Position numbers and translations under genes: made by a program. From NCBI GenBank assembly GCA_903884455.1, contig CAISEW010000041.1, forward strand, positions 17,335 to 81,334: a stretch of DNA of 64,000 nt, in the 5' to 3' direction. This document shows positions 16,137 to 36,118 of this stretch, piece after piece. Source of the stretch: an uncultured Chloroflexota bacterium. Its GTDB lineage: Bacteria; Chloroflexota; Dehalococcoidia; GIF9; AB-539-J10. The notes beneath the pieces are model-generated. The model was not told where the DNA came from, made no database searches, and saw only the letters and a program-made list of their open reading frames with translations. The stretch's first letter is position 1, and each line of letters begins with the position of its first letter.

Positions 16137-16177
16137 GACAAAACCTCTTTGTCTCTTTAGAACACCTGTGCCATAAT
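16137..16177 (+). promoter_or_regulatory. sigma70 promoter with LexA-like box, upstream of the terminase operon
   Basis: -35 TTGTCT (16149), 17-bp spacer, -10 CATAAT (16172); AGAAC-ACCT-GTGCC at 16159-16172; 26/35 ungapped identity to 27414-27448. Confidence 0.65.
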
Positions 16178-16222: not shown

Positions 16223-16369
16223 TTGAGTTTGAAGCTATTGCCGGCGGCTCTTCAGAGGCAAGATTACAACCTGGCAGCTCATGTTCTCGTCTATGGCTTG
16301 GTCAAAGCCTCGGTAGAAAACCCCAAAAAGTGTTATGGCAGCAAAAGGAAAAGGCCAGAGAAAGAGTAG
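16223..16369 (+). CDS. small hypothetical protein (48 aa), first gene of the terminase operon
   Basis: TTG start after AAGGAAAG; MSLKLLPAALQRQDYNLAAHVLVYGLVKASVENPKKCYGSKRKRPEKE*; overlaps the next gene; below the ORF-track cutoff. Confidence 0.5.
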   Translation: MSLKLLPAALQRQDYNLAAHVLVYGLVKASVENPKKCYGSKRKRPEKE

Positions 16370-16691
16370 CCCACGGGGTTTCTATAGCCGGGCCTTGGAC
16401 GAGGCAGAAAAGCTCGAGCTGGAAGAAGCTTCTCATGTCGAAGGAATCGACGAGGAGATTGCCCTTCTCAGAGTAAAGCTCAGGGAACTTCTGGAAGAGC
16501 AGCCAGAGCGAATCGACCTGCACTTCGAGGCTGCCAATATCATAGCCCGGCTGGTAAGAACCCGATATCAAATTACCAAAGAGCAAAAGAAGTCCCTCAA
16601 GGAAGCCATCCAGAAAGTCTTGACCGAAGTCGCTATGCCCCTGGGGGTTGGGGTGGGCGGAAAAATCCTAAGCACTAAATCCCGAAATTAA
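16335..16691 (+). CDS. putative terminase small subunit
   Basis: Basic N-terminus, then GFYS..L...E....IDEEIALLR helical pattern; directly upstream of TerL. Confidence 0.6.
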   Translation: MAAKGKGQRKSSPRGFYSRALDEAEKLELEEASHVEGIDEEIALLRVKLRELLEEQPERIDLHFEAANIIARLVRTRYQITKEQKKSLKEAIQKVLTEVAMPLGVGVGGKILSTKSRN

Positions 16692-16759
16692 TAGTCAGTA
16701 GTCAGTAGATTCCTCTACTGGCTACTGGATTCTGTATTCTTGTTACTACCACTATTTTT
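16688..16759. repeat. heptamer-built palindromic element (AGTAGTC/AGAATTC...CTACTG), copy 1
   Basis: taatagtcagtagtcagtag...ctactggattctgtattcttgttactacc; near-identical inverted copy at 21371-21455; relatives at 31405-31480 and 32686-32746. Confidence 0.75.
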
Positions 16760-18161
16760 ATGGAACTAAGACCTTATCAAATGGAAGTAGCGCGGGCGGC
16801 TATGGACTCTATCCAGAAGGGAATGGGACTGACCTTTTCTGTGGAGATTGCTAGGCAAGGCGGCAAAAACGAGCTTTCAGCGCATCTGGAAATTCTGCTG
16901 TTAACGCTCTATATGGCTAAGGGAGGCAATCTTATAAAGTGCTCCCCGACCTTTAAGCCTCAAACCATTATATCTATAGAAAGGTTAAAGCAGAGGCTGG
17001 ATGATTTCGGTTTTGCCGGCATTTATCGTCTCCAGATGGGCTATATTGTTCAGCTCGGCAACGCTAAAGCCATCTTTCTATCGGCTGAGGGCTCGTCTTC
17101 AGTGGTGGGACACACCCGCTGACATACTTCTGGAGATTGATGAATCGCAAGATATTAGCAAGGAAAAGTACACCAGGGAATTCCGCCCCATGGGTTCCGC
17201 TACCAACGTGACTACGATTCTTTATGGCACTACCTGGGATGATAGCACCTTGCTGGAAGAGGTAAAGCAGGCTAATCTGGAACTGGAAAGAGAGGACGGC
17301 ATTAAGCGCCACTTTAGATATGATTGGCAGGAGGTAGGCCGGTACAATCCTGACTATGTCAAGTTCGTCCAGGCGGAGCGGCAAAGACTGGGTGAAGAGC
17401 ATCCCCTGTTCAGGACTCAATATGCTTTATTACCTATCACCCATGGCGGGGGCTTCCTATCACGGCAACAGATAGCTCTGGTGCTGGGAGAACACCACAG
17501 GCAATCGCAGCCTGAGGGGAAGAGGACTTATATTGCTGGTGTAGATTTGGCCGGAGAACATGAGCCGGAAATGACAGGGGAAGACGCTCCTGACAATAAT
17601 AGGGGAAAAGGATGTGATTCCACAGTAATCACCATTGCCGAGGTGGATGCCCGCCTGCCAAGCCTTGGCGGGCAGGCCACCAATCCATCACAGCCACTGT
17701 TGAAAGTTGTGGAGCAATACCGGTGGACGGGAACGCCCCATAGCCAACTTTTTACCCAGATGACGGATATCCTTAAGAACGTCTGGAACTGCCGCAGGAT
17801 AGTGGTGGACGCCACCGGCATTGGTCAGCCTGTAGCTAGCTTTCTCAGAAAGGAACTGGGAAGCCGGATCATCCCATTTGTCATTACCTCCAAAAGCAAA
17901 TCCGACATGGGCTTTGAGCTATTGTCCTTTATCAATTCCGGGAGGCTTAAACTCTACAAGCAGGATGGCTCCAGGGAGTATAAGGAGACCCTGTTTGAGC
18001 TAGAAAGAGCCAGGGTGCAATATCGCCCCAACCAAACGATGAACTTTTATGTTGACCCTCAAGAGGGGCATGATGATCTTCTCGTGAGTCTGGCTCTGGT
18101 GATCCAGGCCGCTAAAGGTCTTAGCCCCCGGGGAGCCAAAGGTTGGCTCCGGGAAAGCTAG
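16760..18161 (+). CDS. terL: terminase large subunit (one apparent extra base at about 17115-17117)
   Basis: LRPYQ adenine motif, ARQGGKN Walker A, LLEIDE Walker B, YGTT coupling motif, RNase H-like nuclease IAGVDLA..DATGIG..HDDLL; removing one C from ACCCGCT joins the two ORFs (GHT-ADILLEIDE). Confidence 0.85.
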
Positions 18162-18186: not shown

Positions 18187-19365
18187 TCATTCCAATTTAG
18201 GCAAGTCTTTGCCTAGCTCAGCCAGGGATTCAATCCTCTTCTTAGTTTCTTCTAATTGTCCCTTATGTTCATGGGCAAACTGCGTAGCTTGCTCGTAAAA
18301 CTCTTTTATCCTGGGCACAAAGGCTAACTGGGATAATATCAAGGTAACGTCGATGTAGTGCTTTTCTCCGGGAAAATCGCCGCCGCGAATCAGGGCGGTG
18401 GGTGCCAGTTCCTTGATGTAATCGCTAATGTTCTTGACCATGTCCATATTCAGATCTTTTTCCGGACCAGATATGATATATATAGCTTTGCCGGCATCCT
18501 TAGGGCTACAAGTAAGGGAAAGGTCAGAGATGGTGGCGTCTAGGGCTTGTGTCCCCCTGAAGCTTTCCAGAGCTTTGTCGCGGAAAGTCTTCTTCCTTAT
18601 CTCCCAGGGAAAACGGAATGAAGGAAGCTCAGTTCTCCCCAGGCCAATGGTGGTCCATCCCTCTAGGCTGGCAATTATGTCCCCGGCGTCTATCGTCCGC
18701 GAACCTACGTATTTGGCCTTGGTTACCTCACCGGCGCACATTAAATCATAGAAGGGCTCGGCAATCATCCTGTTTATTATATCTATGTTACTAACGAGAC
18801 TGGCATCTTTTCTCACATACCTCTGGTTATCCGCGAGAAAAACGGCATCCACTAAGTCATAAGTGGATTTCAGGCAAGTGGCGGTGTTATATGTGCTCCT
18901 GGACTCTGTGGTCTGCTCGTGCTCAAAAGGCAAAACTATCAGGGCATAAACTGGCTTGCCAATATATCTATCCTTAACTGCCTTGGCTATTATGGGTAGC
19001 GCTCCCGACCCTGTGCCGCCGGCAGCGCCAGCCATGAGAAGAAAACCATGTGTCTCGTAAAACTGTGAACTAGCTTTCACGGCATCCAGTACCTTATCAC
19101 CGTCCTCCTTAGCCAATTGAGCTCCTAGCTCGTTTATCTTGCCTACCCCGTGTCCCAGGGTCTGGCGCAAGCCCAGGAGCACCCGGTGCGTGTAGTCGTT
19201 CTTGATAAACCTTAGTCCGGTCAAATCAGCCTGATCTGTATTCACGGCAATGACGACGGGGGCTATGGTGGCCTTGCGCTGAGCATGCGCCTTGAGATTT
19301 AGCCTGGCAAAGTGGTCAGCAATCCGGCATCCACACTGCCCCAGTCCAATAACTGTTAGCTTCAT
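18187..19365 (-). CDS. tubulin/FtsZ superfamily GTPase, CetZ-like
   Basis: MKLTVIGLGQCG, AVNTDQADL, GHGVG..NELGA, AGGTGSG, CAGEV..IDAGDII; closely parallels archaeal CetZ and lacks the FtsZ C-terminal linker/peptide. Confidence 0.85.
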   Translation of the reverse strand: MKLTVIGLGQCGCRIADHFARLNLKAHAQRKATIAPVVIAVNTDQADLTGLRFIKNDYTHRVLLGLRQTLGHGVGKINELGAQLAKEDGDKVLDAVKASSQFYETHGFLLMAGAAGGTGSGALPIIAKAVKDRYIGKPVYALIVLPFEHEQTTESRSTYNTATCLKSTYDLVDAVFLADNQRYVRKDASLVSNIDIINRMIAEPFYDLMCAGEVTKAKYVGSRTIDAGDIIASLEGWTTIGLGRTELPSFRFPWEIRKKTFRDKALESFRGTQALDATISDLSLTCSPKDAGKAIYIISGPEKDLNMDMVKNISDYIKELAPTALIRGGDFPGEKHYIDVTLILSQLAFVPRIKEFYEQATQFAHEHKGQLEETKKRIESLAELGKDLPKLE

Positions 19366-19407
19366 TTTTCCCTCCTTCTTTCTTTACCGTTGTTTACCCT
19401 CTTGTTG

Positions 19408-19558
19408 GTCATTGCGAGCGGAGCGAATGCGGAGCGCGGCAATCTCCTTCCCCCGTAGCCCCTCCGAGATTGCTTCGTCGCCCCGATGAATCGAGGCTCC
19501 TCGCAATGACAAAGGGGAGGGTATTGCTTCGGCTGACGGAGTCAGCCTCGCAATGACA
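19408..19558. repeat. cluster of 3 TGTCATTGCGA..GCAATC palindromic elements
   Basis: Copies at 19408-19446 (+), 19466-19511 (-), 19523-19558 (-). Confidence 0.9.
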
Positions 19559-19589
19559 GGAAGGGACCGTGCCTGGCAATGGCGCTCCT

Positions 19590-21152
19590 TTAGTAGTAGT
19601 AATGTGTTCTTCTCCTTATTACGAAAAAGTAAACCAGGGCGCCGATGAGCACCACTATTGCGACTATGCTGGCAATGAATACCCATAGGGGCAGGAGTCC
19701 AGCATGTAAGGAACGGGCTGCGGTCCAGTTGCCTGCGTTCTCTGCTCTATCTACGGCTTGCACAATCCAGTAGTAGGTGCCATAAGGCAGGGCTTCTGTC
19801 GCATTCAAGGTATAGTTCGTTCCGACTATGTCCGGAACTGAAACTATGGGGTCAGCAAATCCTTCAGTGGTGATGTTGGCACTGGTCGCTATCTGCAGGC
19901 TATAGCGAACTCCACTGGGATCGGATACCGCCGACCATTCAAATGTCGGCCTCACCTTGCCTATGAATCCCACGCGGCTTCCGTCGGCTGGCGATTTGAG
20001 TTCCGGCACAGGTGGAGGGACTGATTCCATGGTGAAGTTGGCGGTGGCGTTGTTCCCGGCAGTATCGCCGGCTGTTACCGGGCGCTCGCCGTGTTGACTT
20101 TCAGGCACGGCAAAACTTGCCTCAAAGTTGCCGTTGTCGTTGGTTTCGGCTGTCGCTTTCTGGCTACCATCGTACTTTATGGACACATCTTCGGTGGCGG
20201 CAAATCCGCGACCGGTGACGGTCAGGTTTGTGCCCACGTGTCCTTCGTCAGGAGACAGCACGATGCCAGGCTCTATCTTGAAGCTGAGTGCAGTGATGGC
20301 GGCTTTTGGAGTCGATTCTCCGTAGGCAGTCACGTTATACGTGCCTTTGGGCATTTCGGGCACCTCGAAGCTTTTTTCCCAGTAACCTTCGTCGTCAGCA
20401 TCAACCCTGATTTCTGTCCCCACTTCCTCTCCTGCAAATAATATCCTGATGTACCTGTCGTTAGCATAAAATCCGTTGCCTGTCATAGTTATGTTGTCGC
20501 CTACGGTGCCCGATGATTTATCCAGGCTTATCCCCGGCGTTACTTCGAAGGTGGCATCCTTGACTTGATAGAAGCTGCTGCTGGCACCCTGGGCGTCTAT
20601 TTTATGGTTTCCCGTGGTGGAAGGAGGAATTTGGAAACTCCGCTGCCAATTGCCCGTGGCATTCGCCGTGATATTCCCTGGTATCGGTGCATAGCCGGTG
20701 CTATTGAGGTAATACCTCAGCTCGATGCCTGTTTCATTCTTGGCAAATCCATGGCCTTGCACGGTAACATTAGTGCCCACAGGACCTTTGGCAGGACTTA
20801 TTGTCAGCCCCGGCTTCACGGTAAAGTTTTCCGTAGCTTGAGGGGTAGTGTCTATATCAGCACGCACTTCGTGTGCGCCTTTGCAGCTTTCGGGAACGGT
20901 GAAGGTGACATTGAAGCTTCCCGTACTGGTGGTCTGGACATCTATCATCCAGTCCCCGGCATAGTAAATATCAACCCACTTACGAGCCGTAAAGTTATAG
21001 CCATAGACGGTAACCTCTGTTCCGGGCACTCCGTCACCGGGGTCGAGCGTGATAGAAGGTCCTATGCCATCGGCTTGTGCAGGCGTAGCCGGCAGGGCCA
21101 TAGCTACAAGGCAAACGATGAAAACAACCAGTAACCGAGATAGCACACGCAT
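19590..21152 (-). CDS. surface protein with Ig-like (IPT/TIG-type) repeats and C-terminal TM anchor
   Basis: Signal peptide (AQA); four G-x-x-G-T-x-V-T-V-x-G-x-x-F repeats; FN3-like GTYYWIVQAVD; TM helix then RRR. Confidence 0.8.
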   Translation of the reverse strand: MRVLSRLLVVFIVCLVAMALPATPAQADGIGPSITLDPGDGVPGTEVTVYGYNFTARKWVDIYYAGDWMIDVQTTSTGSFNVTFTVPESCKGAHEVRADIDTTPQATENFTVKPGLTISPAKGPVGTNVTVQGHGFAKNETGIELRYYLNSTGYAPIPGNITANATGNWQRSFQIPPSTTGNHKIDAQGASSSFYQVKDATFEVTPGISLDKSSGTVGDNITMTGNGFYANDRYIRILFAGEEVGTEIRVDADDEGYWEKSFEVPEMPKGTYNVTAYGESTPKAAITALSFKIEPGIVLSPDEGHVGTNLTVTGRGFAATEDVSIKYDGSQKATAETNDNGNFEASFAVPESQHGERPVTAGDTAGNNATANFTMESVPPPVPELKSPADGSRVGFIGKVRPTFEWSAVSDPSGVRYSLQIATSANITTEGFADPIVSVPDIVGTNYTLNATEALPYGTYYWIVQAVDRAENAGNWTAARSLHAGLLPLWVFIASIVAIVVLIGALVYFFVIRRRTHYYY

Positions 21153-21234
21153 TTAACTCACCTCCCTTTTGCTATTATAAACGAAAATGACCAGAAAAAG
21201 TAAGTAGTCTTGACTATTTTGGGACAAATTTGTT

Positions 21235-21319
21235 GAGATTGCTTCGGCTGATTTCATCAGCCTCGCAATGACAGGAAGGGAATGTCATTGCGAGCACCTG
21301 AAAGGTGCGTGGCAATCCC
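21235..21319. repeat. pair of TGTCATTGCGA..GCAATC elements
   Basis: 21235-21273 (-) and 21283-21319 (+). Confidence 0.9.
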
Positions 21320-21370
21320 CACAGTTAAATTCCAAAATCCAAACTCCAAACAAATCCCTTCAAAATGCAA

Positions 21371-21455
21371 AAATAGCGGTAGTAACAAGAATACAGAATC
21401 CAGTAGGGAAATCTTCTGAATACTGAATTCTGACTACTGGCTACTGACTATTACT
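21371..21455. repeat. heptamer-built palindromic element, inverted copy of 16688-16759
   Basis: Reverse complement shares taatagtcagtag.cagtag and ctactggattctgtattcttgttactacc.ctattt with copy 1. Confidence 0.75.
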
Positions 21456-23013
21456 AGTAGTAGTATCTTCTCCTTATTACCAAAGCGCGAATCAAAGCGC
21501 CGAGAAGCACCGCTATTGCCACTATGATGAGAATGAATGCCCACATAGGCAAGAGTCCAGCACGGAAAGAGTGAGCCGCAGTCCAGCCTCTTTCGTTCCC
21601 TGCGCCGTCTACGGCTTGCACAATCCAGTAGTAAGTGCCATCAGGCAGGGCATCTGTCGCATTCAGGGTGTAGTTCGTCCCGACTATGTCCGCAACTGAA
21701 ACTATGGGGTGAGCGAATTCTCCGGTGGTGGTGACGTTGGCACTGGTTGCTATCTGCAGGCTATAGTGAACTCCACTGTCATCGGATACTGCTGACCAAC
21801 TGAACGTCGGCGTCACCTTGCCCATGAGTCCCGCCCAACCTCCGTTGGATGGTGAAATGAGTGTTGGTATGTCCGGAGGATGTGATTCCATGATGAGGAT
21901 AGCAGTGGCATTATTCCCCCCAACATCCGTGGCTATTATTTGGCGCTCACCATGTGGGCTCTCAGGCACGACAAAGATTGCCTCAAAGCTGCCTGTGTCG
22001 TTGGTCGTGGCTGTTGCTTTCTGGTTACCATCGTACATTATGACCACATCTTTGTTGGCGGCGAATCCATGGCCCGTGACGGTCAAGTTCATGCCCACGT
22101 ATCCTTCGTCGGGGGGCAACACGATGTCCGGCTCTATCTTGAAGCTGAGCTCGCTGATATCTTCTTTCTTAGTCCATTCTCCCTCGGCGGCCACGCTATA
22201 CGTGCCTGCGGGCATTTCGGGCACCTCGAAGCTTCCCTCCCAGTTACCTTGAGAATCGGCTTTGATGCCTGTGACCACTGCCTCCCCATCAAACAATATC
22301 TGGATGTTCTTTTCATAAGCCACAAATCTGCTGCCCGTCATGGTTATTGCATCGCCCATGCTGCCCCATGGTTTATCTAGGCTTACCTCTGACGTTACTC
22401 TAAAAATGGCATCTTGGACCTCATAAAACTGGCTCTCAGCACCCTGGGCATCTATCTTATGTTCTCCCTTGGTGGAGGGGGGAATTGAGAAACTCGTCTC
22501 CCAACTGCCCGTGGCATTGGCTACTATACGCCTTTGTATCGTTTGGTAGTTGTCATTGAGGTAATACATCAACTCGATGCCCTGTTCATTCTGGGCAAAG
22601 CCCTGTCCTGTCACGGTAACATTAGTGCCCACAGGACCTTCGGCAAGACTTATTGTCAACCCCGGCTTCACGGCGAAGTAAGTATCTACTCTGACAGTCC
22701 CTATGTAGGTCCCTACCACAGCGAGTAATTTGTGGTCTCCCTTACAGCTTTCAGGGATGGTGAGGTGGATTGTGAAATCTCCACTGCCATCGGTCTGGCC
22801 TGTGGCTACGTGGGTCTCGTCATAATAGATGTCCACATACTTGCCGTCATCAAAGTACTGGCCAGTGACGATGATCTCTGTTCCGGGGGCTCCTGAGCCA
22901 GGGGAGAGCTGGATGGAAGGTCCTCCACACTGAGCCTGTGCGGGCACAGCTGGCAGGGTCATAGTGACAAGGCAGACGACGAGAACGATGACCAATCGAG
23001 ATAGTAAGCGCAT
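21454..23013 (-). CDS. tandem paralogue of the Ig-repeat surface protein
   Basis: Same architecture and long near-identical stretches (e.g. DIVGTNYTLNAT, YYWIVQAVD) as 19590..21152. Confidence 0.8.
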   Translation of the reverse strand: MRLLSRLVIVLVVCLVTMTLPAVPAQAQCGGPSIQLSPGSGAPGTEIIVTGQYFDDGKYVDIYYDETHVATGQTDGSGDFTIHLTIPESCKGDHKLLAVVGTYIGTVRVDTYFAVKPGLTISLAEGPVGTNVTVTGQGFAQNEQGIELMYYLNDNYQTIQRRIVANATGSWETSFSIPPSTKGEHKIDAQGAESQFYEVQDAIFRVTSEVSLDKPWGSMGDAITMTGSRFVAYEKNIQILFDGEAVVTGIKADSQGNWEGSFEVPEMPAGTYSVAAEGEWTKKEDISELSFKIEPDIVLPPDEGYVGMNLTVTGHGFAANKDVVIMYDGNQKATATTNDTGSFEAIFVVPESPHGERQIIATDVGGNNATAILIMESHPPDIPTLISPSNGGWAGLMGKVTPTFSWSAVSDDSGVHYSLQIATSANVTTTGEFAHPIVSVADIVGTNYTLNATDALPDGTYYWIVQAVDGAGNERGWTAAHSFRAGLLPMWAFILIIVAIAVLLGALIRALVIRRRYYY

Positions 23014-23093
23014 TTGACTATTCTTTCGTTATTATAACCGAAAAGTATACCAGAAAGTAAAGCGGGCTACCCCTGCCACTATGCTTTTCTATA

Positions 23094-23182
23094 TGTCATT
23101 GCGAGTCCCGATTTATCGGGACGTGGCAATCCCTGCCCCTCCGAGATTGCTTCGGCTGACTAAAGTCAGCCTCGCAATGACA
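23094..23182. repeat. pair of TGTCATTGCGA..GCAATC elements
   Basis: 23094-23132 (+) and 23143-23182 (-). Confidence 0.9.
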
Positions 23183-23209
23183 AATGGGAATACACTGAGC
23201 ATTTGTGGA

Positions 23210-23241
23210 AAAAGGGAGGGGCGGCTTTCGCCGCCCCTCTT
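23210..23241 (-). terminator. putative intrinsic terminator of the S-layer gene
   Basis: GAGGGGCGG stem with short loop; CCTTTT follows on the minus strand. Confidence 0.6.
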
Positions 23242-23290
23242 GGAAATCACCTTTACCTCTCCCTCGAAGAGAGGGTTAGGTGGGGTGTGC

Positions 23291-26200
23291 TTATACCCGA
23301 CGAGTCCTGAAGATGAGCACTATGACCACAATCACCAGAACCGCGCCGATGGCGATAACTACCCACACCCAGAATGGGGTTGCGGGAGCTGGGTGCGACG
23401 TAGCTTCGTGCGCTTGCAGTGCCGCCGCACTGTCGAAGCACAGACCGTCAATTGGATCACAGAACGCACCCTGTGCTCCTGTGGTAAAGGTGCCTATGAC
23501 GCTCGTGCTTATGACAGCACCTGCATTGTAGGCGGTCACCTGCCAGTAGTAGGTGGTGCCGTGGGTCAGCGTTCCGGTATAAGTGCAGGCTGTGGTGGTC
23601 AGGCCGGTCTTGGTTTGGAGGGGGCTGGAAAGATCAGCGTTGGCCGACAGCACCCACTTGAACGCATCAGCAGTAGCTGTCATGTGCCAGCTGAAGCCCA
23701 CATTCATTGTACCCACACCGGTGGCTCCGGGCGCAGGAGCGACAAGGTCGATCGCGGCAGCTCCCACACTGGGAGCAATTGTGACCTTCATGGGATCAGA
23801 CCACCAGCTGTGGATTACTTGACAGGTCCCAGCCTGGGTAGCTCTGACTCTCATGTAGTAGGTGGTTTCACAAGAAAGCCCTTCTCCACCCACTCCTCCC
23901 GCGACCAAGTAGCTAGTAGGGGTTTTACTGCCTTCGCGAGGAGCTGATATGGTGTCAAACACAGCGGTGAAGTCCTCGTCCAGTGCAAACTGTATTTCAT
24001 AGTGGCAGGCATCGCACAGGCCGTCCCACGTGATGCCAAACGGTGCATTGTAGCATGAGCAGGGGTCGGCTTTGATGGTCGTGTTGCCAGTAGGAGATGT
24101 CACGTCGGGAGCCTTCTTGGCATAGCAGTCCTCGAAGGTCCAGACAGCGCCATCTTCGTGATTGGACATGTCGTAGCCATATTCCGAGGCGCCCCAGGAG
24201 TCAATGGCAAAGAGCTTGCTGTTGCTATCTGGAGTCAGACAACCGCAGATCTTCAGGGCATTGGGCGTTGCCTGGAAGCCTACCTCGTAGTCAAGGCCCA
24301 CAGTCAGGTAATCCCACTCAACACACGTCGCGCACTCTATGGTTTCGGCAGGGTTGAGCGAGCGGGCCACGCCGGTCTGCCAACACGTCCAGGTGTTACA
24401 GTCAGGGGCACCGGCGTAGTCACAATACTCTCTGGTGAAGCTGGCGTAGAGGACGCCGCCGGTGGCAGCGCTGGTGTAGGGATTGCCATTAATATTGCTC
24501 AGTACCAGGCCGGTGTAGCTCAAGTCATGCCTGGCACCCGTGTCTGCCCAGTCATCGCTTGTGCCAAGGACCCAGCGGTAGATGCCGCCGTTGTAGTCGT
24601 CGCCGCCCCATCCCTCTATAGCAGCGTAGATTATATTATTGGTGTCGAAGTAGGTATCGAAAGCCACGCTGGTGTGGCCCTCAACGGGAGTCGTCGCGTC
24701 GTTGCCAGCTGCATCCTGCAGATGGGTGAAGGTCTCACCTCCATCGTCGGAGTAAGCAACCTCACCATCAAACATGCCGCCGACAAGGACATAGTCGCCA
24801 TGGACAGCGATGCTCCAACCATAAGTGTTCAGCTTGCTGTCCACCGCGTCATGCCAGCCATCAGAATCGTACATGGAAACGTCGCCATTATAATCCAGGG
24901 CATAGAGGGTATCGGCGTCTTTGGCGACCAGGTCCACGATCTCGGTTAGCGTGGTGGATGGTAAGGGGGTCCAGCAACCCAGGGTTTCCAGGTCATTCCG
25001 GTACACATTGCTGGTCCCATAGTCCACGAGATAGACGGTATCTCCGGTTGTTTCAGTCAGAGGCAGCCTGAGCAAGCCCGCTTCGGAACCATCTGTGTAT
25101 TCATACCATGTTGTGCCTGTGAGCTCGCCGCACCAGGTCCTCAGCCATTTGCCGCTGTATTCCTCAGCCTCGGGAAGGCTCGTAGCTTTGAGCCAGACGC
25201 TGTCACAGCCAGCACCCTGACGCTGCCCGTTATTAACGCTGACAAGCATCATCTTGTTGCAGTCGGGCGAGACCGCGACATCGGACAGGTAGTCGATCGC
25301 AGTGTCAACCAGGCTGAGCTGGTTCCAGGTATTGCCGCCGTCGAAAGTTACCGACCAGGCGCCCTCGTCGTAATCGAAAACGCCCTGGAGGGCGACAGCG
25401 TAAGCCTTGTCTGCGCTGACAAAGGATACCGCCATGGCGGTCTCTCCGGTGGGTGGCTTGCAAGCCTTCAGCCATCGCTGACAGCAGATATCCATGTTGT
25501 GGATGCCCGTGTTGCGATAGACCTGGACGCCCGCACAGCCGCCACCGTTATAGAGGCTGGTTCCGCTGCCTAGCACGCCGGCGATAGCCTCACCTTCGGC
25601 TATGGTACCGTAGTAGGAGACATTGGTCAGCCAGAGTTCGCCGTTCTTGACCTGCTGTACTACGGGGTCGGCGGAGTCATTGTCCACCCGCACTATCTTG
25701 CATGCGGAATAGCCCGTATTATAATCATAGTAGTTCACCCAGACCCAGAGAACTCTGGTATCGGTGCTCTTACTGTTGTAGTCGCTGGGCAGGGTCAGGC
25801 CGGCTATTGATCTGACGTCGTACGAGATACCGCTTGATAGCAGATTCTCATTGTGTAGTACGAGCACAGCGTCGATGCCCAGAGTGGACTTCGCGTTCCA
25901 GCCCGGGGTTGATAGCATACTACCGGACTGCAGGTAGATATCCGAGTAGGGCATGTTGTAGGGAACAACGGTGGTAACCAGGAGGGTCTTGTCCGTCGCA
26001 TAGCTGGGTGAGAATTCCATGAAGGTAACGCCAATCGAGGTAAAGCTGGCAGCGGTAGAGCTGCCGACGTTATCCCAGCCAGCATAGGCTGTGGCATCCT
26101 GCCAGGCACCGGCGCTCTCTCCGGTAACCGTGCAGCGGAAAAGCAGGGAGTATCCGCTCAAATCGGAGCCACCGGCGACGATATCCCGCTTGCCGGCCAC

Positions 26201-26767
26201 TTCGGGGGAGACGGCGAGGTCAGCGACTGACCCGCCTGAGGGGTTGAAGTATTTGCCGTTATCCGTAACTTCGCCGGCGTCATTGAAGGTCGTGCCGCCG
26301 TCGTTGGAGAAGTAAACACGGAGTTCAGTGGTATTAGTCCAGAAAACGACAGCCACGAAGTTGGGGTCCACCCCGTCGGTCTCGACTCGCAGCAATTGAC
26401 TTATGCTGACTGTCTTGTCTACTTTCGCCAGTGCATCGGTGAGGTCGGTCCAGGTGGCAGCGCCGTCATCGGACTTCAGCACGCGATAACTCTGATTACT
26501 CCAACTCTCATCATATCCATATACCACGGCGTAGGTCACTGCTCCTTCGGAAGCCAGGGCATAATCGATAATCGTGCTCTGTGGTGACAGGACCCAGCCG
26601 GCCATGGTGGGAGTGTCCGTCATGCTCCATTCGGCCTTTACATTATTATTGCCATTGGCGGCGCTCACCTTGTGGGCGGGTGCCGCTGTAATAAACAGAC
26701 TGAGCGCCAGTGCCGCAGCGATGAGTATATACATCGCCCTCACTGGCCACTCTCTTGATTTAATCAT
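23291..26767 (-). CDS. large BNR/Asp-box, Cys-rich cell-surface (S-layer-like) protein with C-terminal TM anchor
   Basis: Start reassigned to ATG 26767 after AAAGGAGG; signal peptide; Asp-boxes KSDDGAATW, FSNDGGTTF, TFDGGNTW, YSDDGGETF; FN3-like TTYYWQV; TM helix then FRTRRV. Confidence 0.8.
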   Translation of the reverse strand: MIKSREWPVRAMYILIAAALALSLFITAAPAHKVSAANGNNNVKAEWSMTDTPTMAGWVLSPQSTIIDYALASEGAVTYAVVYGYDESWSNQSYRVLKSDDGAATWTDLTDALAKVDKTVSISQLLRVETDGVDPNFVAVVFWTNTTELRVYFSNDGGTTFNDAGEVTDNGKYFNPSGGSVADLAVSPEVAGKRDIVAGGSDLSGYSLLFRCTVTGESAGAWQDATAYAGWDNVGSSTAASFTSIGVTFMEFSPSYATDKTLLVTTVVPYNMPYSDIYLQSGSMLSTPGWNAKSTLGIDAVLVLHNENLLSSGISYDVRSIAGLTLPSDYNSKSTDTRVLWVWVNYYDYNTGYSACKIVRVDNDSADPVVQQVKNGELWLTNVSYYGTIAEGEAIAGVLGSGTSLYNGGGCAGVQVYRNTGIHNMDICCQRWLKACKPPTGETAMAVSFVSADKAYAVALQGVFDYDEGAWSVTFDGGNTWNQLSLVDTAIDYLSDVAVSPDCNKMMLVSVNNGQRQGAGCDSVWLKATSLPEAEEYSGKWLRTWCGELTGTTWYEYTDGSEAGLLRLPLTETTGDTVYLVDYGTSNVYRNDLETLGCWTPLPSTTLTEIVDLVAKDADTLYALDYNGDVSMYDSDGWHDAVDSKLNTYGWSIAVHGDYVLVGGMFDGEVAYSDDGGETFTHLQDAAGNDATTPVEGHTSVAFDTYFDTNNIIYAAIEGWGGDDYNGGIYRWVLGTSDDWADTGARHDLSYTGLVLSNINGNPYTSAATGGVLYASFTREYCDYAGAPDCNTWTCWQTGVARSLNPAETIECATCVEWDYLTVGLDYEVGFQATPNALKICGCLTPDSNSKLFAIDSWGASEYGYDMSNHEDGAVWTFEDCYAKKAPDVTSPTGNTTIKADPCSCYNAPFGITWDGLCDACHYEIQFALDEDFTAVFDTISAPREGSKTPTSYLVAGGVGGEGLSCETTYYMRVRATQAGTCQVIHSWWSDPMKVTIAPSVGAAAIDLVAPAPGATGVGTMNVGFSWHMTATADAFKWVLSANADLSSPLQTKTGLTTTACTYTGTLTHGTTYYWQVTAYNAGAVISTSVIGTFTTGAQGAFCDPIDGLCFDSAAALQAHEATSHPAPATPFWVWVVIAIGAVLVIVVIVLIFRTRRV

Positions 26768-27206
26768 TATTTCCTCCTTTATAGGTATCCAACTTATCTT
26801 CACTCTCGCCCGAGGTCGACCCCTCAGGGCTCGAGTCATTGGAAACGTTTTTTCAGTAAACCTAGTTTTAAGCCTGCCTCATTTCAGGCTGCCCTTTTTG
26901 AGATTGCGGAGCTTGTTCCGAGTGAAACAAGGAATCTCGCTCCTCGCAATAGCTTCTTGCCCGGGCCAGGCATTGTTCTCTTCCCCTCGACTCCTCGCAA
27001 TGGCGATTCGCTTCGGGACTTTGCCATAGGCGTCACCTCCTTTCCATTTTATTGAGTAATGCCATTCTGAGGAGCCCCGATTCATCGGAGCTGGCTCAGA
27101 ATGACCGGCAAATGTCATCTAACAATATTCAATTATTAAAGTTCCAACAAAATCAAATTTCTCGCCAAAAGCCATAGTAATAGGCTTTAGGCCTACCTAA
27201 CCTTCT

Positions 27207-27301
27207 ACTTTAAACCTATATATCTATTTTGTCAATAGGTGAATTAAGAAATTTGCCAAAATAGCTTAGGTTTATTATAACCCCCAGCTTTCTTTTGTCA
27301 A
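27207..27301 (-). promoter_or_regulatory. two tandem near-consensus sigma70 promoters for the S-layer gene
   Basis: TTGACA(27235-27230)-17-TAAAGT(27212-27207) and TTGACA(27301-27296)-16-TATAAT(27279-27274). Confidence 0.7.
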
Positions 27302-27413
27302 TATGCCTCATATAGCGAGGTATAAGTGAGGCAGGGACAATCCCCCTCCTGTCATTGCGAGGCTGACTTCGTCAGCCGAAGCAATCTCGGGTCGGGATGG
27401 TTGAGGCTAACAG

Positions 27414-27459
27414 GACAAAAATTCCTTGCCCTTTTAGAACAAAGGTGCTAATTTATACT
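27414..27459 (+). promoter_or_regulatory. promoter with LexA-like box, upstream of the virion operon
   Basis: GACAAAA-N5-TTGCCC; AGAAC-AAAG-GTGCT at 27436-27449; TATACT at 27454; same spacing as 16137-16177. Confidence 0.65.
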
Positions 27460-27464
27460 CTATT

Positions 27465-27848
27465 ATGGAAAATGGATTGCTCTGGGATTTGTTGCCCGAG
27501 GAATTCCCCTACGAAGATAAAGGCTGTGAGCTCTTTTCCTCCTGTCTTAACTGCCCCTTTCCTGATTGTCTTGAAGAGGAGCCCTGGGGGAAGGAGAGAT
27601 TCTTAAAGCGCAGGCGAGCCGGGAGAATGCTGGAGTTGAAGCGGGAAGGGAAAAGCGTTAAGGAGATTGCCCGCATATTTGAGGTGAGCCCGAGAACGGT
27701 ACAGAGATGGTTGAAGGCGGTGGAAGCAGCTACCCCCTCTGTCGTTGCGAGAAGCCGAGATTCCTCGTTTCACTCGGAACCTGCTCCGCAATCCCATGGG
27801 GCTGTTGACGATGGAGATTGCCACGCACCTTTCAGGTGCTCGCAATGA
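27465..27848 (+). CDS. Cys-rich HTH regulator (sigma70 region 4-like HTH); C-terminus extended by repeat elements
   Basis: C-x5-CxxCP-x3-C, then GKSVKEIARIFEVSPRTVQRWL; residues after about 27740 and the stop codon come from palindromic elements. Confidence 0.75.
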   Translation: MENGLLWDLLPEEFPYEDKGCELFSSCLNCPFPDCLEEEPWGKERFLKRRRAGRMLELKREGKSVKEIARIFEVSPRTVQRWLKAVEAATPSVVARSRDSSFHSEPAPQSHGAVDDGDCHAPFRCSQ

Positions 27849-27927
27849 CACTCCCTTCATGTCGTTGCGAGGCTGATTTCGTCAGCCGAAGCAATCTTGT
27901 GGAGGACAGCTAAAGGAGGCTTAAGAG

Positions 27928-29454
27928 ATGACTGATTTTACCCCATCCCAACTAGCCCGCATGGACACCCAACGCCTGGCTAATTACCGTGCTAACCTGG
28001 ACTTTTACCAGGGCAATCACTGGCCCACGCAGTCACGTCACCGCCAGCTCGTCTTTAATTACGCCAAGGTCTCCATTGACAAGGTCACCAGCTTCCTTAT
28101 GCCGGGGCTGGGCTTTGCCTGCTACCCCAGCGGCGCCCCCTTGTCATTGCGAGGAGCGCAGCGACGAAGCAATCTCGAAAGTGAAGAGGCTCGGGTGAGA
28201 AAGGCCGAGCAGCTCCTTCGCCAGGTCTATGAGCAAAACAACCTCCAGCAGCTTGATTACGAGACGGAGATTGACACCGCCATCTTGGGCGACGGTTGCT
28301 ATAAGGTCATCTGGGATACTGGCGAGAAGCGAGTCCGTATCACCGCCCCTGATGTCTCAGGCATCTATGCCTGGTGGCTGGGAGACGATGCGTCACGAGT
28401 GTGGAGAGTCGCTTCACGCTACACCCTCACCCAGGACGAAATCCAGATGCTTTATGGTGATGTCATTGCGAGCACAGCGAAGCAATCTCAAGGGATTGCC
28501 ACGTCGCCCCGATTCATCGGAGCTCCTCGCAATGACACCCCTCTGTCATTGCGAGGCACGCCAGTGCCGAAGCAATCCCAAGGAAAGGACAGAGTCGTGG
28601 TAACCGAGCTCTGGACGGCTAAGGACTTTGAGCTTTACCTGGATAACGACCTTATACAGTCCAAGCCCAACCCCTACGGCTTCATCCCCTTTATTATCTT
28701 CCCCAACATCAAGCAGCCCAAGAAGTTCTGGGGAGAGTCGGACATTCCCATCCTTATGCAGCCTCAGCGGGAGCTTAATAGAGCCCTGAGCCAGTTATCC
28801 CGCATCCTGGAGCTTTCTGGCAATCCCATCGCCGTTCTCGAAAACATCGCCTCAGCCGAGGACATCAAGGTCCAGCCCGGCGCCCTGTGGACGATACCGG
28901 AGGACGCTAAGGCATATCTTCTGGACTTACTGCAAGGCGGTGGAGTCAGGCTTCATGTCGATTACATCGAGTTGCTATACCGCTCGTTGCACGACATCTC
29001 CGAGCTTCCAAAGGCCGCCTGGGGAGGCGCTGAGAGAGACCTCTCAGGCTCAGCTATGAGGATTGAGCTCGGTAGCCTTATCCAGAAGGTAGTCAGGAAA
29101 CGCACCATCAGGATGAACGTGTATCACCAGCGAAACGACATGATATTGAAGCTCGCTGAGAGATATATGGACGAGAACTTTGAGGGAGTAAACCACAGAG
29201 TAGTCTGGGGCCCTATCTTGCCACAGGATGCAGATAGGCAAGCCCAGACCGAGCAGCTTTTGGTCCAGGCGGGAGTCCACTCACGAAGAACCGCTATAGA
29301 CGAAATGGGAATCCAGGACCCCGATGAGGAGTTTAACAGGTGGCTAGAGGAGAGGGAGAAAATCCTGGAAATGAACAGGGAGTTTAGGGCAGCGTCCACT
29401 CGTGGCGGAGCGAGAGAGAGAGCGGTAGCCGCAGAGATGGAAGTGCCTGAGTAA
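27928..29454 (+). CDS. phage portal protein (SPP1 gp6-like) with in-frame repeat insertions
   Basis: LDFYQGNHW, LVFNYAK, ILGDG, NPYGFIPF, WGESD, LSGSA, VWGPILPQD; AAGGAGG RBS. Confidence 0.85.
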   Translation: MTDFTPSQLARMDTQRLANYRANLDFYQGNHWPTQSRHRQLVFNYAKVSIDKVTSFLMPGLGFACYPSGAPLSLRGAQRRSNLESEEARVRKAEQLLRQVYEQNNLQQLDYETEIDTAILGDGCYKVIWDTGEKRVRITAPDVSGIYAWWLGDDASRVWRVASRYTLTQDEIQMLYGDVIASTAKQSQGIATSPRFIGAPRNDTPLSLRGTPVPKQSQGKDRVVVTELWTAKDFELYLDNDLIQSKPNPYGFIPFIIFPNIKQPKKFWGESDIPILMQPQRELNRALSQLSRILELSGNPIAVLENIASAEDIKVQPGALWTIPEDAKAYLLDLLQGGGVRLHVDYIELLYRSLHDISELPKAAWGGAERDLSGSAMRIELGSLIQKVVRKRTIRMNVYHQRNDMILKLAERYMDENFEGVNHRVVWGPILPQDADRQAQTEQLLVQAGVHSRRTAIDEMGIQDPDEEFNRWLEEREKILEMNREFRAASTRGGARERAVAAEMEVPE

Positions 29455-29530
29455 TAACTCAACCCCTTGTCATTGCGAGCCCTGAGCTCGGCAAAGGGCG
29501 AAGCAATCTCAAGAGGAATAGGAGAAATGT

Positions 29531-30043
29531 ATGGAAAACGAAACTCAAGAAACCTTGGAAACTCAAGAACCCGGGAATACTGCCCCAGACCCTGAGGACT
29601 TATCAATCATCAAGGCCGAGCTTGAGGAGGGGAGGAAGGCGAAGGCCGAAATCGAGGCAGCGTTAGCCGACAGAGCTAAACGTATCACCGAGCTGGAGGC
29701 CTCGCTAAATGTAGTCTCTCAGGCCAGCGAGGCGGCGGCAGCCGAGCTCGCCGCAGTGAAGGGCGCTAGCTCGAAGGCCGTCTCTAAATACCTCGAGGCC
29801 GCCAGAGCTCTTAATTCCACCATCCCCAAAGACGTCATCTCTGGCCAGACTATTGAGGAGATAGACGCCTCTGTGGAGAAGGCGAAGGCCATCGCCAATG
29901 CCGTCAGGGCTAACCTCGAAGCTCAGGCCAAAGAGGCTAAGGTCCCGGCAGGAGCACCCACCAGAAGTGAGATATCCCTTGAGGGACTTTCCCCCCGGGA
30001 GAAGATCGCCGCTGGAATAATGTCATTGCGAGGAACGCAGTGA
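29531..30043 (+). CDS. putative capsid scaffolding protein
   Basis: Acidic Ala/Glu-rich coiled coil ending LSPREKIAAG; position between portal and capsid; last codons and stop come from a repeat element. Confidence 0.7.
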   Translation: MENETQETLETQEPGNTAPDPEDLSIIKAELEEGRKAKAEIEAALADRAKRITELEASLNVVSQASEAAAAELAAVKGASSKAVSKYLEAARALNSTIPKDVISGQTIEEIDASVEKAKAIANAVRANLEAQAKEAKVPAGAPTRSEISLEGLSPREKIAAGIMSLRGTQ

Positions 30044-30074
30044 CGAAGCAAACTCAAAAAGGAGGAACAAGCTA

Positions 30075-30305
30075 ATGCAAGACATCATCGAAATGGGAGT
30101 TTGGGCTATTATTGGAATAGCCATTCTCAGTGTGCTAGCCACGCTGTCCATCCACTTCCTGTCGCAGCGTTCGCAGCAGCACATGAACGAAACCTCCCAG
30201 TCTAACCTCTACAACCTACACTCGTTGGGCATCCAGGCCATTATCGGAGCTAACGAGATGAAGATTGTGGACGATAGCCTGCAAGACACCGAAAAGAAAA
30301 GCTAA
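30075..30305 (+). CDS. small single-TM protein between scaffold and capsid genes
   Basis: AAGGAGG RBS; N-terminal hydrophobic helix; flanked by duplicated AAAAAGGAGGAAC(A/T)AGCTA. Confidence 0.55.
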   Translation: MQDIIEMGVWAIIGIAILSVLATLSIHFLSQRSQQHMNETSQSNLYNLHSLGIQAIIGANEMKIVDDSLQDTEKKS

Positions 30306-30325
30306 AAAGGAGGAACTAGCTAGAC

Positions 30326-31398
30326 ATGACAATATCTTTAGCAGAAGCCAGTAAACTCTCGAGCGATATCCTGCTTAAAGGTATCATCGAGACAATAATC
30401 AAGGACAGCCCCATCTTAGAGAGGCTGCCCTTCATTCAAATCGTCGGCAATAGCCTTAAATACAACAGGGAGAAGACCTTGCCGACCGTTGGCTGGTATG
30501 CCCCGGTAACCGGTACCTGGACTCAGTCCGAGCCGGCTTTTGAGCAGTGCTCGGCCAGCCTGGGCGTCCTCGGCGGAGACGCCGACGTGGACAACTTTCT
30601 TAAGGCCACCCGGAGCAACATCCAGGACCTCGAGGCCGCCGTCATCGAGCAGAAGGCCAAGGCTCTCAGGCACGAGTTCGAGAACACCTTCCTTAACGGA
30701 GACTCGGGCGTCGACGCCAACCAGCCCGATGGCCTCTATAAGACCATGAAAGGCACCGCCTGGGCAGCCAGCACCGCCTATACATTAGGCCAATTTGTCG
30801 TGCCCACGGCCGGCCTCGAAAACGGATTCCGTTACGAGTGCACCACCGCCGGCACCTCAGGATCCTCAGCGCCTACCTGGCCCACCACGGAAGGGGCCAC
30901 GGTAGCCGACAACACCGCCGTCTGGACCTGCCGTTACGGCAGCCATCAGGGCTCAGGAGCCAACGGAGCCACCCTTTCCTTGACCAGCCTGGATAAGCTT
31001 ATTGACCTGGTCAGAGGCGGCAAGCCCGACTTACTCTTAATGAGCCGCCGGTCCCGCAGGAAGATTGTGACCCTGGCCAGAGCTGCGGGCACCAATCTAC
31101 TTATCGGAGAGGGCGCGCTCGGCCAGGTCGTTGAGTACTTTAACGGCATCCCTGTGGCCATCTCCGACTGGGTAAAGGATAACTACACCGTCGGCACGTC
31201 GTCCGACTGCTCTGCCATCTTCGCCTTCCAGATGGGTGAGGGGGGAGTCTGTGGACTTACAGCCCTGAGATGATTCAGGTTGAGCGTCTTGGCTCACTGG
31301 AGACTAAGGACGCCACCAGAACCAGGGTCAAGTGGTATGTATCACTGGCTCTCTTTTCCGTAGTGAAGGCTGCCATGCTGACGGGGGTGAGAGACTAA
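30326..31398 (+). CDS. HK97-fold major capsid protein (one apparent missing base at about 31260)
   Basis: IIETIIKDSPILERLPF, YNREKTLP, LGGDADVDNFL, FNGIPVAISDW; adding one C at CTTACAGC gives GLTSPEMIQVERLGSLETKDATRTRVKWYVSLALFSVVKAAMLTGVRD* ending at 31398. Confidence 0.85.
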
Positions 31399-31404
31399 CA
31401 GAAA

Positions 31405-31480
31405 GCGGGAGTCAGGAGAAAGCAGTAGTCAGTAGTCAGAATTCAGAATCTACTGGCTCCTGACTCCTGTCTACTGACCA
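31405..31480. repeat. heptamer-built palindromic element
   Basis: agcagtagtcagtagtcagaattcagaatctactggctcctgactcctgtctactgac. Confidence 0.7.
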
Positions 31481-31488
31481 GGTGAACT

Positions 31489-32079
31489 ATGAACCTAACC
31501 CAAATGAGAGCCAGGGTCCGACAGGACCTCCAGGATACTGATAGCCAGAACTACTGCTGGACGGACGACGAAATCGAAGCAGCTATCCAGAGAGTAGCAT
31601 TGGAGTATTCTCTCCATGCTCCCATCGAGCAGCAGACCGATATCGCCACCACCTACGGAAGCACCGAGCTCGATATATCAGGACTGCAAGGAGCCCTTAG
31701 AATCGAGTCCGTCGAGTTTCCCATCGGCAAGACCCCGAAATATATACAGAGGTTTGAGTACTGGGGCACCAGCCTGCACATGGAAGACCAGGGAAACGGC
31801 CAGAACGCCCGGGTGAGATGGCTAAAGAAGCACACGCTCACAACCGAGTCCACGACCATCCCAACCGAGCACGACGAAATCATTATCCTGGGGGCCACAG
31901 GCTACCTGGCTATGTCAGCGTCAGCCTATACAGTGGACAGAGCCACTATCGCTGGGCGTTACGGCACCACGAGCTACAAGGCCTGGGGTCAAGAACGCCT
32001 TGACCGCTACGACAAGCAGCTCAAGGCCGTTAGCCGTTCTAACCAAGTTGTTCGGAAGGAGCTCTATACAGATGATTGA
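31489..32079 (+). CDS. putative head-tail adaptor
   Basis: MNLTQMRARVRQDLQD..WTDDEIEAAI adaptor-like N-terminus; directly after capsid. Confidence 0.65.
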   Translation: MNLTQMRARVRQDLQDTDSQNYCWTDDEIEAAIQRVALEYSLHAPIEQQTDIATTYGSTELDISGLQGALRIESVEFPIGKTPKYIQRFEYWGTSLHMEDQGNGQNARVRWLKKHTLTTESTTIPTEHDEIIILGATGYLAMSASAYTVDRATIAGRYGTTSYKAWGQERLDRYDKQLKAVSRSNQVVRKELYTDD

Positions 32080-32281
32080 AAAAGGCATCCTACGAAGCTA
32101 CGACCCTATTAACCACAGAGCCAGCGTTCAGCTCATGGGCTCTTTGACCACCTATTTTGACAACGTCCGAGTTGCCAGGAATATCCCTTCCCTTGAAATG
32201 GTACTCGGCCGACACGTGTTTATAGCCATTCCCGAGAACAACCCCGGGAACGCCGCTATCATCGCCATTTTTGACCCGTAG
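32072..32281 (+). CDS. small beta-rich (OB-fold-like) putative spike/baseplate protein
   Basis: ATG at 32072 after AAGGAG; MIEKGILRSYDPINHRASVQL..VLGRHVFI pattern recalls the gp5/gpV N-terminal OB fold. Confidence 0.45.
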   Translation: MIEKGILRSYDPINHRASVQLMGSLTTYFDNVRVARNIPSLEMVLGRHVFIAIPENNPGNAAIIAIFDP

Positions 32282-32290
32282 CACCAAACT

Positions 32291-32327
32291 ACCCCTCTTA
32301 AATTAAGAGGGGATAGGGGAGTTATGA
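32291..32327. repeat. CCCCTCTTAA..TTAAGAGGGG palindromic element
   Basis: acccctcttaaattaagaggggataggggagttatga; relatives at 60265-60400. Confidence 0.65.
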
Positions 32328-32346
32328 CAGCGAAAAGGAGGGAAAC

Positions 32347-32685
32347 ATGAGTAAACTAACAGAAGCACTTACAAAGGAGAAAACCAAGGAGGGCCTCCCC
32401 AAAGAAGCCTTCGCCATCGTGGAAGACCCTGATGACCCCAGCACCTGGAAGCTTCCCCATCACACCAAAGCTATACTGAGAGCTCTTAAAGGCCGTCTCG
32501 ATATCGAAAAGACTGTGGACTGGGATAGAATGCCAGCAGCCATCGCCGCTCTCAGCAGAGGCGGATATCGGGGGGAGAGGGTCCAAGCCTCAGAGGAGGA
32601 CATCATCAAGGCCGCCCGTCACTTAGCGGCCCACTATGAAAAGGCCGACAAGTCCGTCCCCGACACCCTGGGCGCCCTCATTTGA
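32347..32685 (+). CDS. phage-type hypothetical protein
   Basis: AFAIVEDPDDPSTWKLPHH motif of the kind seen in phage head-region proteins; strong RBS. Confidence 0.55.
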   Translation: MSKLTEALTKEKTKEGLPKEAFAIVEDPDDPSTWKLPHHTKAILRALKGRLDIEKTVDWDRMPAAIAALSRGGYRGERVQASEEDIIKAARHLAAHYEKADKSVPDTLGALI

Positions 32686-32746
32686 GCAGAAGACAGTAGT
32701 CAGAATCCAGAATCTACTGTCTACTGACTCCTGACTACTGATTACT
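32686..32746. repeat. heptamer-built palindromic element
   Basis: agacagtagtcagaatccagaatctactgtctactgactcctgactactg. Confidence 0.7.
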
Positions 32747-32757
32747 ACGGAGGAACC

Positions 32758-33936: not shown

Positions 33937-33943
33937 GACATCT

Positions 33944-36107: not shown

Positions 36108-36118
36108 TTTGTTTCCCG

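Follow-up and report, generated by a model that had tools for sequence, protein, structure and literature searches.

A CetZ-family GTPase paired with an Ig-domain membrane protein lies between two islands of phage-derived genes in an uncultured Dehalococcoidia bacterium

The 64,000-nucleotide stretch analysed here (the window) comes from a 1.56-Mb, 99.5% complete genome of an uncultured Chloroflexota bacterium and carries, on its minus strand, four open reading frames (ORFs) spanning 18187-26839 that encode a 392-aa tubulin-family GTPase, two membrane proteins with immunoglobulin-like (Ig) domains (Ig1 and Ig2) and a protein of 1182 aa. All four are co-oriented, as the original prediction had described them, and NCBI labels proteins closely homologous to the GTPase as belonging to Dehalococcoidia bacteria, in agreement with the predicted host. 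Plus-strand virion genes stand on both sides, with a small ORF and a terminase large subunit (TerL) to the left and genes for a helix-turn-helix (HTH) protein, a portal, a major capsid protein, an adaptor-like protein and tail-like proteins to the right. We consider it probable that the locus is a host CetZ gene with its envelope neighbourhood, and that the flanking virion genes are an old, split phage-derived set placed there by history. The presence of CetZ in Dehalococcoidia is already in print, in one survey; what is new is the conserved pairing of an Ig gene with CetZ and the hypervariable island of surface and virion genes.

Judged from its sequence, the GTPase is a true CetZ-family protein, belonging to a bacterial branch of that family. 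It matched the Pfam families Tubulin (PF00091, 9.4e-33) and CetZ_C (PF21011, 5.6e-20, 72 bits against a cut-off of 21.6), the latter matching, among the control genomes, Haloferax volcanii only. When all solved chains were searched, the top three were CetZ structures, namely 4b46 (1.4e-45, over residues 1-380), 4b45 (1.2e-27) and 3zid (2.7e-16), with FtsZ chains appearing only from about 1e-8 and tubulins from about 1e-6. The GTPase motifs are intact (T1 GLGQCG at residue 7, T4 GGTGSG at 116 and the T7-like DAGDII at 226), and D226 and D229 align to D215 and E218 of 4b46, so that the acidic T7 residues are present. These T1, T4 and acidic T7 residues are invariant across 15 orthologues, and the C-terminus retains its K-x-L-P end. 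We take E218 of CetZ1 to be catalytic, the acidic T7 residue presumably activating GTP hydrolysis in the next subunit. A canonical FtsZ is also encoded in the genome, as one copy on another contig.

The superfamily phylogeny pointed the same way. It comprised 99 rows, of which 74 were full-length representatives from the best 150 of 1609 hits, 16 were labelled Dehalococcoidia sequences, 8 came from two archaeal genomes and one was the FtsZ of the genome itself; five near-identical rows from the same genus were omitted. In this quick LG+G4 search with a single outgroup and mostly unlabelled representatives, all 16 labelled Dehalococcoidia rows fell within one 39-row clade (SH-aLRT 100), nested (95) among clades with archaeal rows, and the genome's own FtsZ was the distant outgroup. 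The archaeal anchor P0155, from a Hydrothermarchaeota record, matched 4b46 at 3e-113. The CetZ_C match, the ranking of the structures and the tree thus bear out the earlier proposal that the protein is of the CetZ type rather than FtsZ. With CetZ1 (4b46) and CetZ2 (4b45) of Haloferax volcanii and the Methanosaeta CetZ (3zid) it has the Tubulin and CetZ_C domains in common, and with 4b46 a full-length alignment; unlike them it belongs to a bacterial host, its identity to them is about one third, its neighbours are an Ig-domain membrane protein and a terminase, and it is known from its sequence.

In the text portions covered, a 2024 paper (PMC11621097) describes CetZ as archaea-specific, and those of Santana-Molina et al. 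2023 (PMC9871819) report sparse CetZ-like groups in Chloroflexota-Dehalococcoidia whose C-termini match the CetZ_C model. The Dehalococcoidia group of the latter consists of the same proteins as those treated here; the Ig partner, the surface genes and the terminase neighbourhood are not described in those portions.

We determined the distribution of the gene in 61 genomes of the order that were at least 90% complete (G labels stand for genomes below), with a CetZ match threshold of E<=1e-30. A CetZ match was present in 59/61 and an orthologue of the present copy in 55/61, with identities to the GTPase of 87-96% within the genus and about 60% across the order. Other families carry a second paralogue (about 40% identity), which is sister to the first in the tree (99). 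Phylum-wide, CetZ_C was found in 14/151 genomes, that is, in 14/17 of the same class and 0/134 of the other classes. Within the genus the CetZ gene has a dS of 0.19-0.50 and a dN/dS of 0.07-0.23, resembling the flanking host genes, and it has no match in PHROG. Its spread and its pace of change indicate that CetZ belongs to the host and has been inherited vertically, rather than being carried by a phage.

The opposite proposal, that CetZ is a phage or mobile-element tubulin of the PhuZ or TubZ kind carried as cargo between terminase and portal, could draw on the position of the gene, which does sit between TerL and portal, on the opposite strand. It is already contradicted on several counts, and we give it hardly any credence. 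Copies of the mobile element run from the candidate small terminase (TerS) through TerL to the portal uninterrupted and without CetZ; in G006 the CetZ-Ig pair adjoins the PHO4 gene without TerL, and the element of that genome is on another contig; CetZ occurs in 59/61 genomes against 33/61 for the portal, has a host-like dS and lacks a PHROG match; and housekeeping genes occupy the same gap in other families. The host segment between the islands (CetZ and the Ig genes, elsewhere also rho, tal and pyrG) would on this evidence have been placed there by history, with CetZ no part of an element's cargo.

The second conserved feature of the locus is the gene directly upstream of CetZ. Read from coordinates, an Ig-family gene occupies this position on the same strand in 52/55 orthologue-bearing genomes, with gaps that are mostly below 400 bp and reach about 1.1 kb at the largest; linkage of CetZ to an Ig-repeat membrane protein therefore extends well beyond this genome. 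In the three exceptions CetZ either lies at the end of a contig (G028 and G064) or is without such a neighbour (G031); G027 no longer has the Ig gene beside CetZ. Four families have kept the pair while its other neighbours (rho-tal-pyrG, the large protein, the portal island) appeared and disappeared. In G039 and G026, for example, rho, transaldolase (tal) and CTP synthase (pyrG) sit between the Ig gene and BNR-type genes, which is not so in this genus.

Ig1 and Ig2 are 64% identical, and the tandem pair recurs in G004, G048, G069 and G079. Both, like the large protein, have an N-terminal hydrophobic signal region, a single C-terminal transmembrane helix and a short basic tail, a predicted topology that would leave all three secreted and anchored to the cell as expected of an S-layer protein. 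The AlphaFold (AF2) model of Ig1, built from an 11-row alignment (pLDDT 88.3), consists of five Ig-like beta-sandwich domains followed by a helix at 489-519, and its fold matches were many kinds of tandem-Ig proteins, all with low TM-scores (0.15-0.2). The S-layer glycoprotein csg of Haloferax volcanii (7ptp) resembles Ig1 in having a chain of Ig-like domains and a C-terminal anchor, and 7ptp_A ranked 11 (E 4.7e-13), a match no more specific than those to other tandem-Ig proteins. Unlike csg, the Ig proteins have no PGF-CTERM signal, the C-terminal 50 residues gave only sub-threshold matches to CTERM sorting signals, and no exosortase or archaeosortase family was found in the genome. Ig1 is rich in N-x-S/T sequons (17 against 4.1 expected, a number reached in 0/2000 shuffles), as is Ig2 (8 against 2.6 expected); the large protein is not enriched.

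An STT3-family oligosaccharyltransferase homologue is encoded elsewhere in the genome (G000:C34:29339-30148, L052; a 789-aa frame, 104.8 bits, above the Pfam cut-off). Among 14 controls this family was found in archaea only, and it was above the cut-off in 7/61 same-class genomes, including all 4 sampled from this order; in G025 one STT3 copy lies about 10 kb from CetZ-Ig. A full-text literature search returned no paper linking Dehalococcoid with oligosaccharyltransferase.

Adjacency of this kind could also be no more than inherited gene order, the Ig and BNR proteins serving as common adhesins or surface enzymes that do not work with CetZ. Several Ig-family copies per genome lie away from CetZ (5 matches here, up to 7 elsewhere), the intergenic gaps measure 66-363 bp, the large gene has a promoter and terminator of its own, the Ig tail is unconserved and other orders are without the pairing, all of which favour this explanation. 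Against it, the pair is kept in 52/55 genomes and four families despite the turnover of its neighbours, and a search of the stretch from Ig1 to CetZ found nothing resembling a terminator. Within the genus, that intergenic stretch shows conservation only in the 40-80 bases ahead of the CetZ start. We regard simple gene order as a possible but rather unlikely account.

The largest of the four genes is not part of one operon with the other three, a strong terminator closing it on the CetZ side. Its ORF opens at 26839, and the likely start is M25 at 26767; position 27301, the end of the region that the original prediction had marked out, coincides with the -35 hexamer of a promoter facing this gene. 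No Pfam family was above the cut-off for the protein, which has three BNR-like motifs (at 178, 498 and 697) and which in the Atlas is surrounded by clusters from Chloroflexota that carry Sortilin-Vps10 and Ig_Rha78A_N domains. A colinear alignment (E 6e-17) was obtained with a BNR protein of 1025 aa encoded beside rho in a 1.5-Mb genome of the same class (G102); the two proteins have a C-terminal anchor in common, with 29% identity over the last 350 residues, and both end in LI[FV]RTRRV.

In the text portions covered, a paper on Dehalococcoides mccartyi (PMC6646388) gives its S-layer protein as annotated BNR/Asp-box repeat protein, and the large protein agrees with this in its BNR-like motifs, signal peptide and C-terminal anchor. 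The G102 protein is of that annotated kind and not necessarily that S-layer protein itself; neither it nor the G114 homologue contains the S-layer peptide published for Dehalococcoides. The large gene had been called S-layer-like; its homology to an anchored BNR/Asp-box protein of the kind annotated as S-layer in Dehalococcoides stands, and its S-layer status is that of a candidate. Within the genus it is only 50-53% identical (dN/dS 0.45-0.53). We therefore describe it as a fast-evolving BNR/propeller surface protein and S-layer candidate, for which the consensus promoter, the strong terminator and the BNR homology are the sole hints toward an abundant S-layer role.

The virion genes occur in two arrangements. 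A mobile, contiguous form (integrase, small ORF, TerL, portal, scaffold-like ORF, capsid, adaptor and tail genes) lies elsewhere in G006, G081 and G068, and TerL-portal-capsid runs are also found in G044, G061 and G056. The split form recurs in family 1 (G004, G048, G069, G079), family 2 (G039, G076) and family 3 (G026, G030), and in 42/55 genomes TerL and CetZ converge, lying no more than 8 kb apart. In the window, the ORF scan of 16.3-36.1 kb, which took in the ORFs above small size, turned up no integrase. The trees of TerL, portal and capsid follow host family, and within them mobile copies are intermixed with fixed ones.

Across the order TerL was found in 52/61 genomes and the portal in only 33/61. 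Four genomes that are 96-99% complete (G029, G036, G057 and G050) keep CetZ-Ig and TerS-TerL but lack both an SPP1-type portal and a capsid of the family in question. Between G029 and G039 the dN/dS of TerL is 0.05-0.09, the Walker and nuclease motifs are retained in all 20 aligned TerL sequences, orphans included, and the candidate TerS, for which no family match was above the cut-off, has a dN/dS of 0.12-0.20. Intact TerS-TerL thus persists at one chromosomal site under strong purifying selection even in genomes where neither portal nor capsid was found. TerS-TerL is the fixed part of the phage-derived set, and the genes from portal to tail are its exchangeable part.

Both islands carry a LexA-type box, and since they keep the same one they still look like one regulon. 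Searched genome-wide, the pattern TAGAAC-N4-GT[GT]C occurred four times; two occurrences lie upstream of TerS and of HTH-portal. The exact palindromic consensus GAAC-N4-GTTC had 0 matches in the window, the boxes found deviating from it at one position. A third box, a perfect palindrome, lies 17 bases before a dinB-type polymerase gene on another contig (L061 906-919, contig C62). Half-sites are kept, with varying spacers, in 9/14 fixed TerS copies and 8/9 split-locus HTH copies; no box was found at the CetZ, Ig or large-protein genes. The virion genes belong to a split, tamed and integrase-less phage-derived set, probably under LexA control.

Gene transfer agents (GTAs) of the RcGTA type likewise consist of phage-derived head, tail and packaging genes at one chromosomal site, under purifying selection and with a common regulatory box. 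Unlike RcGTA, the set described here is split by host genes, its portal-tail part is patchy (33/61) and diverges, by dS, three to five times as much as the host flanks, and this copy has two frame breaks. Intact particle-building genes are expected of a GTA, and here the reading frames of TerL and the tail-fibre-like gene are interrupted. Compared with L016 and L024, TerL has gained a single base at about 17114-17117; this base is kept in an independent assembly of what is probably the source sample (X1 contig) and absent from contigs of two other studies (X2 and X3). The tail-fibre-like gene occupies two frames here and one frame in G079, G048, G004, G006, G026 and G030.

The within-genus rates of divergence differed sharply along the locus. 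The host flanks, TerS, TerL and CetZ have a dS of about 0.2-0.3 (dN/dS 0.07-0.25), compared with 0.46-0.84 for Ig1 and Ig2 (dN/dS 0.30-0.48), 0.70-0.86 for the large protein (dN/dS 0.45-0.53) and 0.74-1.5 for the genes from portal to tail (dN/dS 0.08-0.27). Nucleotide identity to G079 is accordingly 90% up to 19381, 70-82% over 19575-36676 and again 90% beyond.

This pattern is what would be expected if the surface proteins were the receptor or exit site for particles of the split set, with everything from Ig1 to the tail genes forming one co-diversifying, GTA-like unit. The drop in identity between conserved flanks, the raised dS in the Ig and large-protein genes as well as in the virion genes, the box kept at both virion islands and the purifying selection on the virion genes all favour such a unit. 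Against it stand the portal, present in only 33/61 genomes while the Ig-CetZ pair is kept in 52/55, the broken frames of TerL and the tail-fibre-like gene, and the LexA-type box, absent from the CetZ, Ig and large-protein genes. Fast divergence of surface proteins is, in addition, common in many microbes without any link to particles. We consider this explanation improbable.

The earlier suggestion that the CetZ module is tied to particle release or receptor function fared no better, since rho, tal and pyrG also lie in the terminase-portal gap of other families, CetZ-Ig and TerS-TerL are also kept in genomes in which neither portal nor capsid was found, the box common to the two virion islands was not found at the CetZ module, and the Ig tail is short and unconserved across families. 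The module had also been described as nested inside the virion cluster, which is accurate as to position, with terminase on one side and portal on the other; functional nesting is not supported.

Several observations nevertheless weigh against our preferred reading of a host CetZ gene and envelope neighbourhood beside a phage-derived set split by history. The raised divergence that the Ig, large-protein and virion genes have in common, between conserved flanks, is also expected under a receptor link, which for that reason keeps some standing. The cytoplasmic tail of the Ig protein has only 6-12 residues, is basic and varies by family (RRR-x-YYY, R-R-D-E-W-K, LKQM-x-W-E), so that direct contact between CetZ and the tail is without support from conservation. 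In two other orders of the class the closest CetZ adjoins glycolysis genes, not Ig. Two same-genus genomes that are 93-95% complete have no CetZ match, and the gene can therefore be lost. Finally, the CetZ tree is a quick LG+G4 one with one outgroup and mostly unlabelled rows.

With these points weighed, CetZ in this host most likely forms GTP-dependent filaments under the membrane that help to set cell shape, and it would do so together with the surface proteins. No match to the FtsW/RodA/SpoVE family was found in the whole 99.5%-complete genome, although 10/10 bacterial controls matched; its absence fits a peptidoglycan-free cell and is in line with the wall-less Dehalococcoidia host that had been predicted. 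A more far-reaching combination, in which the Ig proteins (probably N-glycosylated) and CetZ make up an archaeal-style trans-envelope shape system and, at the same time, the LexA-box virion set is GTA-like with tail proteins co-diversifying with surface-protein receptors, seems to us quite unlikely as a whole.

Those who work on CetZ call it archaea-specific, and here a whole wall-less bacterial order keeps it beside one Ig-domain membrane protein, which makes that protein a concrete candidate partner for linking CetZ to the envelope. The same region brings together a packaging pair evolving at the pace of the host, a patchy and faster-diverging capsid and tail set under the same operator, and the most variable surface proteins of the cell. 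The locus should thus be useful for studying the interplay of tamed phage genes and surface variation in uncultured sediment bacteria. The features of the locus are collected in Table 1.

Table 1 Features of the CetZ locus and of the adjoining virion islands, in window coordinates
Feature	Coordinates	Strand	Basis or remark
LexA-type box TAGAACACCTGTGC, upstream of TerS	16158..16171	+	one of 4 genome-wide matches
Small protein that always precedes TerL (candidate small terminase, TerS)	16335..16691	+	conserved with TerL in fixed and mobile copies
Terminase large subunit (TerL), convergent with CetZ	16760..18161	+	Terminase_6C
CetZ-family tubulin-like GTPase, 392 aa	18187..19365	-	Pfam Tubulin and CetZ_C, PDB 4b46, tree, motifs
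Ig1, 520 aa, type-I membrane protein, tail RRRTHYYY; conserved upstream partner of CetZ	19590..21152	-	TIG 2.5e-18, AF2 model
Ig2, 519 aa, tandem paralogue of Ig1, same architecture	21454..23013	-	TIG/Ig-like domains
Intrinsic-terminator-like hairpin after the large gene	23216..23239	-	10-bp stem, 9 GC pairs, T run
BNR/propeller-type surface protein (S-layer candidate), tail RTRRV	23291..26767	-	BNR-like motifs, homologue in G102
Sigma-70-type consensus promoter TTGACA-16-TATAAT, upstream of the large gene	27274..27301	-	12/12 matches; pattern match only
LexA-type box TAGAACAAAGGTGC, upstream of HTH-portal	27435..27448	+	one of 4 genome-wide matches
HTH, first gene of the second virion island (27465..36107)	27465..27848	+	
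Portal	27928..29454	+	
ORF in the second virion island	29531..30043	+	
Major capsid protein	30326..31273	+	
Adaptor-like gene	31489..32079	+	
Tail-protein-like gene	32758..33936	+	
Tail-fibre-like gene, frame break near 35014-35018	33944..36107	+	

The outer host genes to the left are MgsA, PhoU and PHO4; those to the right encode a metallo-beta-lactamase-fold protein and a prepilin peptidase. The PHO4 phosphate transporter gene (15021-16031) has 39-43% identity to its positional counterpart in five same-genus genomes, against 80-95% for its neighbours, and looks like a replaced allele. Within 15-38 kb of the window Rfam gave zero matches at E<=0.1, and a search for RNA runs covering 18187-27301 listed none. 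Further right, a tRNA-His called by ARAGORN (39213-39300, minus strand) overlaps the 3' end of a 381-aa RCC1-repeat ORF (39205-40350), and one of the two calls may be mis-bounded.

Short repeats are scattered through the region. An interspersed palindromic repeat of about 45 nt, made up of TCATTGCGAGG, a variable hairpin and GAAGCAAT, has stems that covary and occurs in the window at 19468-19566, 21223-21281, 27343-27387, 27853-27897, 28142-28187, 28494-28537 and 30021-30066; genome-wide there are 48 exact-pattern copies, compared with 0 for a reversed control. Two copies lie inside the portal ORF where the portals of relatives align with a gap, leaving the frame unbroken, which is reminiscent of the in-frame palindromic elements of other bacteria. 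Depth spikes at 27.6-28.9 kb fall at short repeat copies and were read as repeat artefacts. Contig joints (16705>32714, 28579>16663 and 23182>26902, the last skipping the large gene) were likewise rejected as deletions, their ends lying at short interspersed repeats with sides of 26-36 letters. A second family of short intergenic repeats, represented by 16722-16759 and 21369-21406 (38 nt, 97% complementary) and by 31421-31477 and 32685-32741 (57 nt, 89% identical), sits between genes of both virion islands and the Ig genes, and its copies are possible recombination sites.

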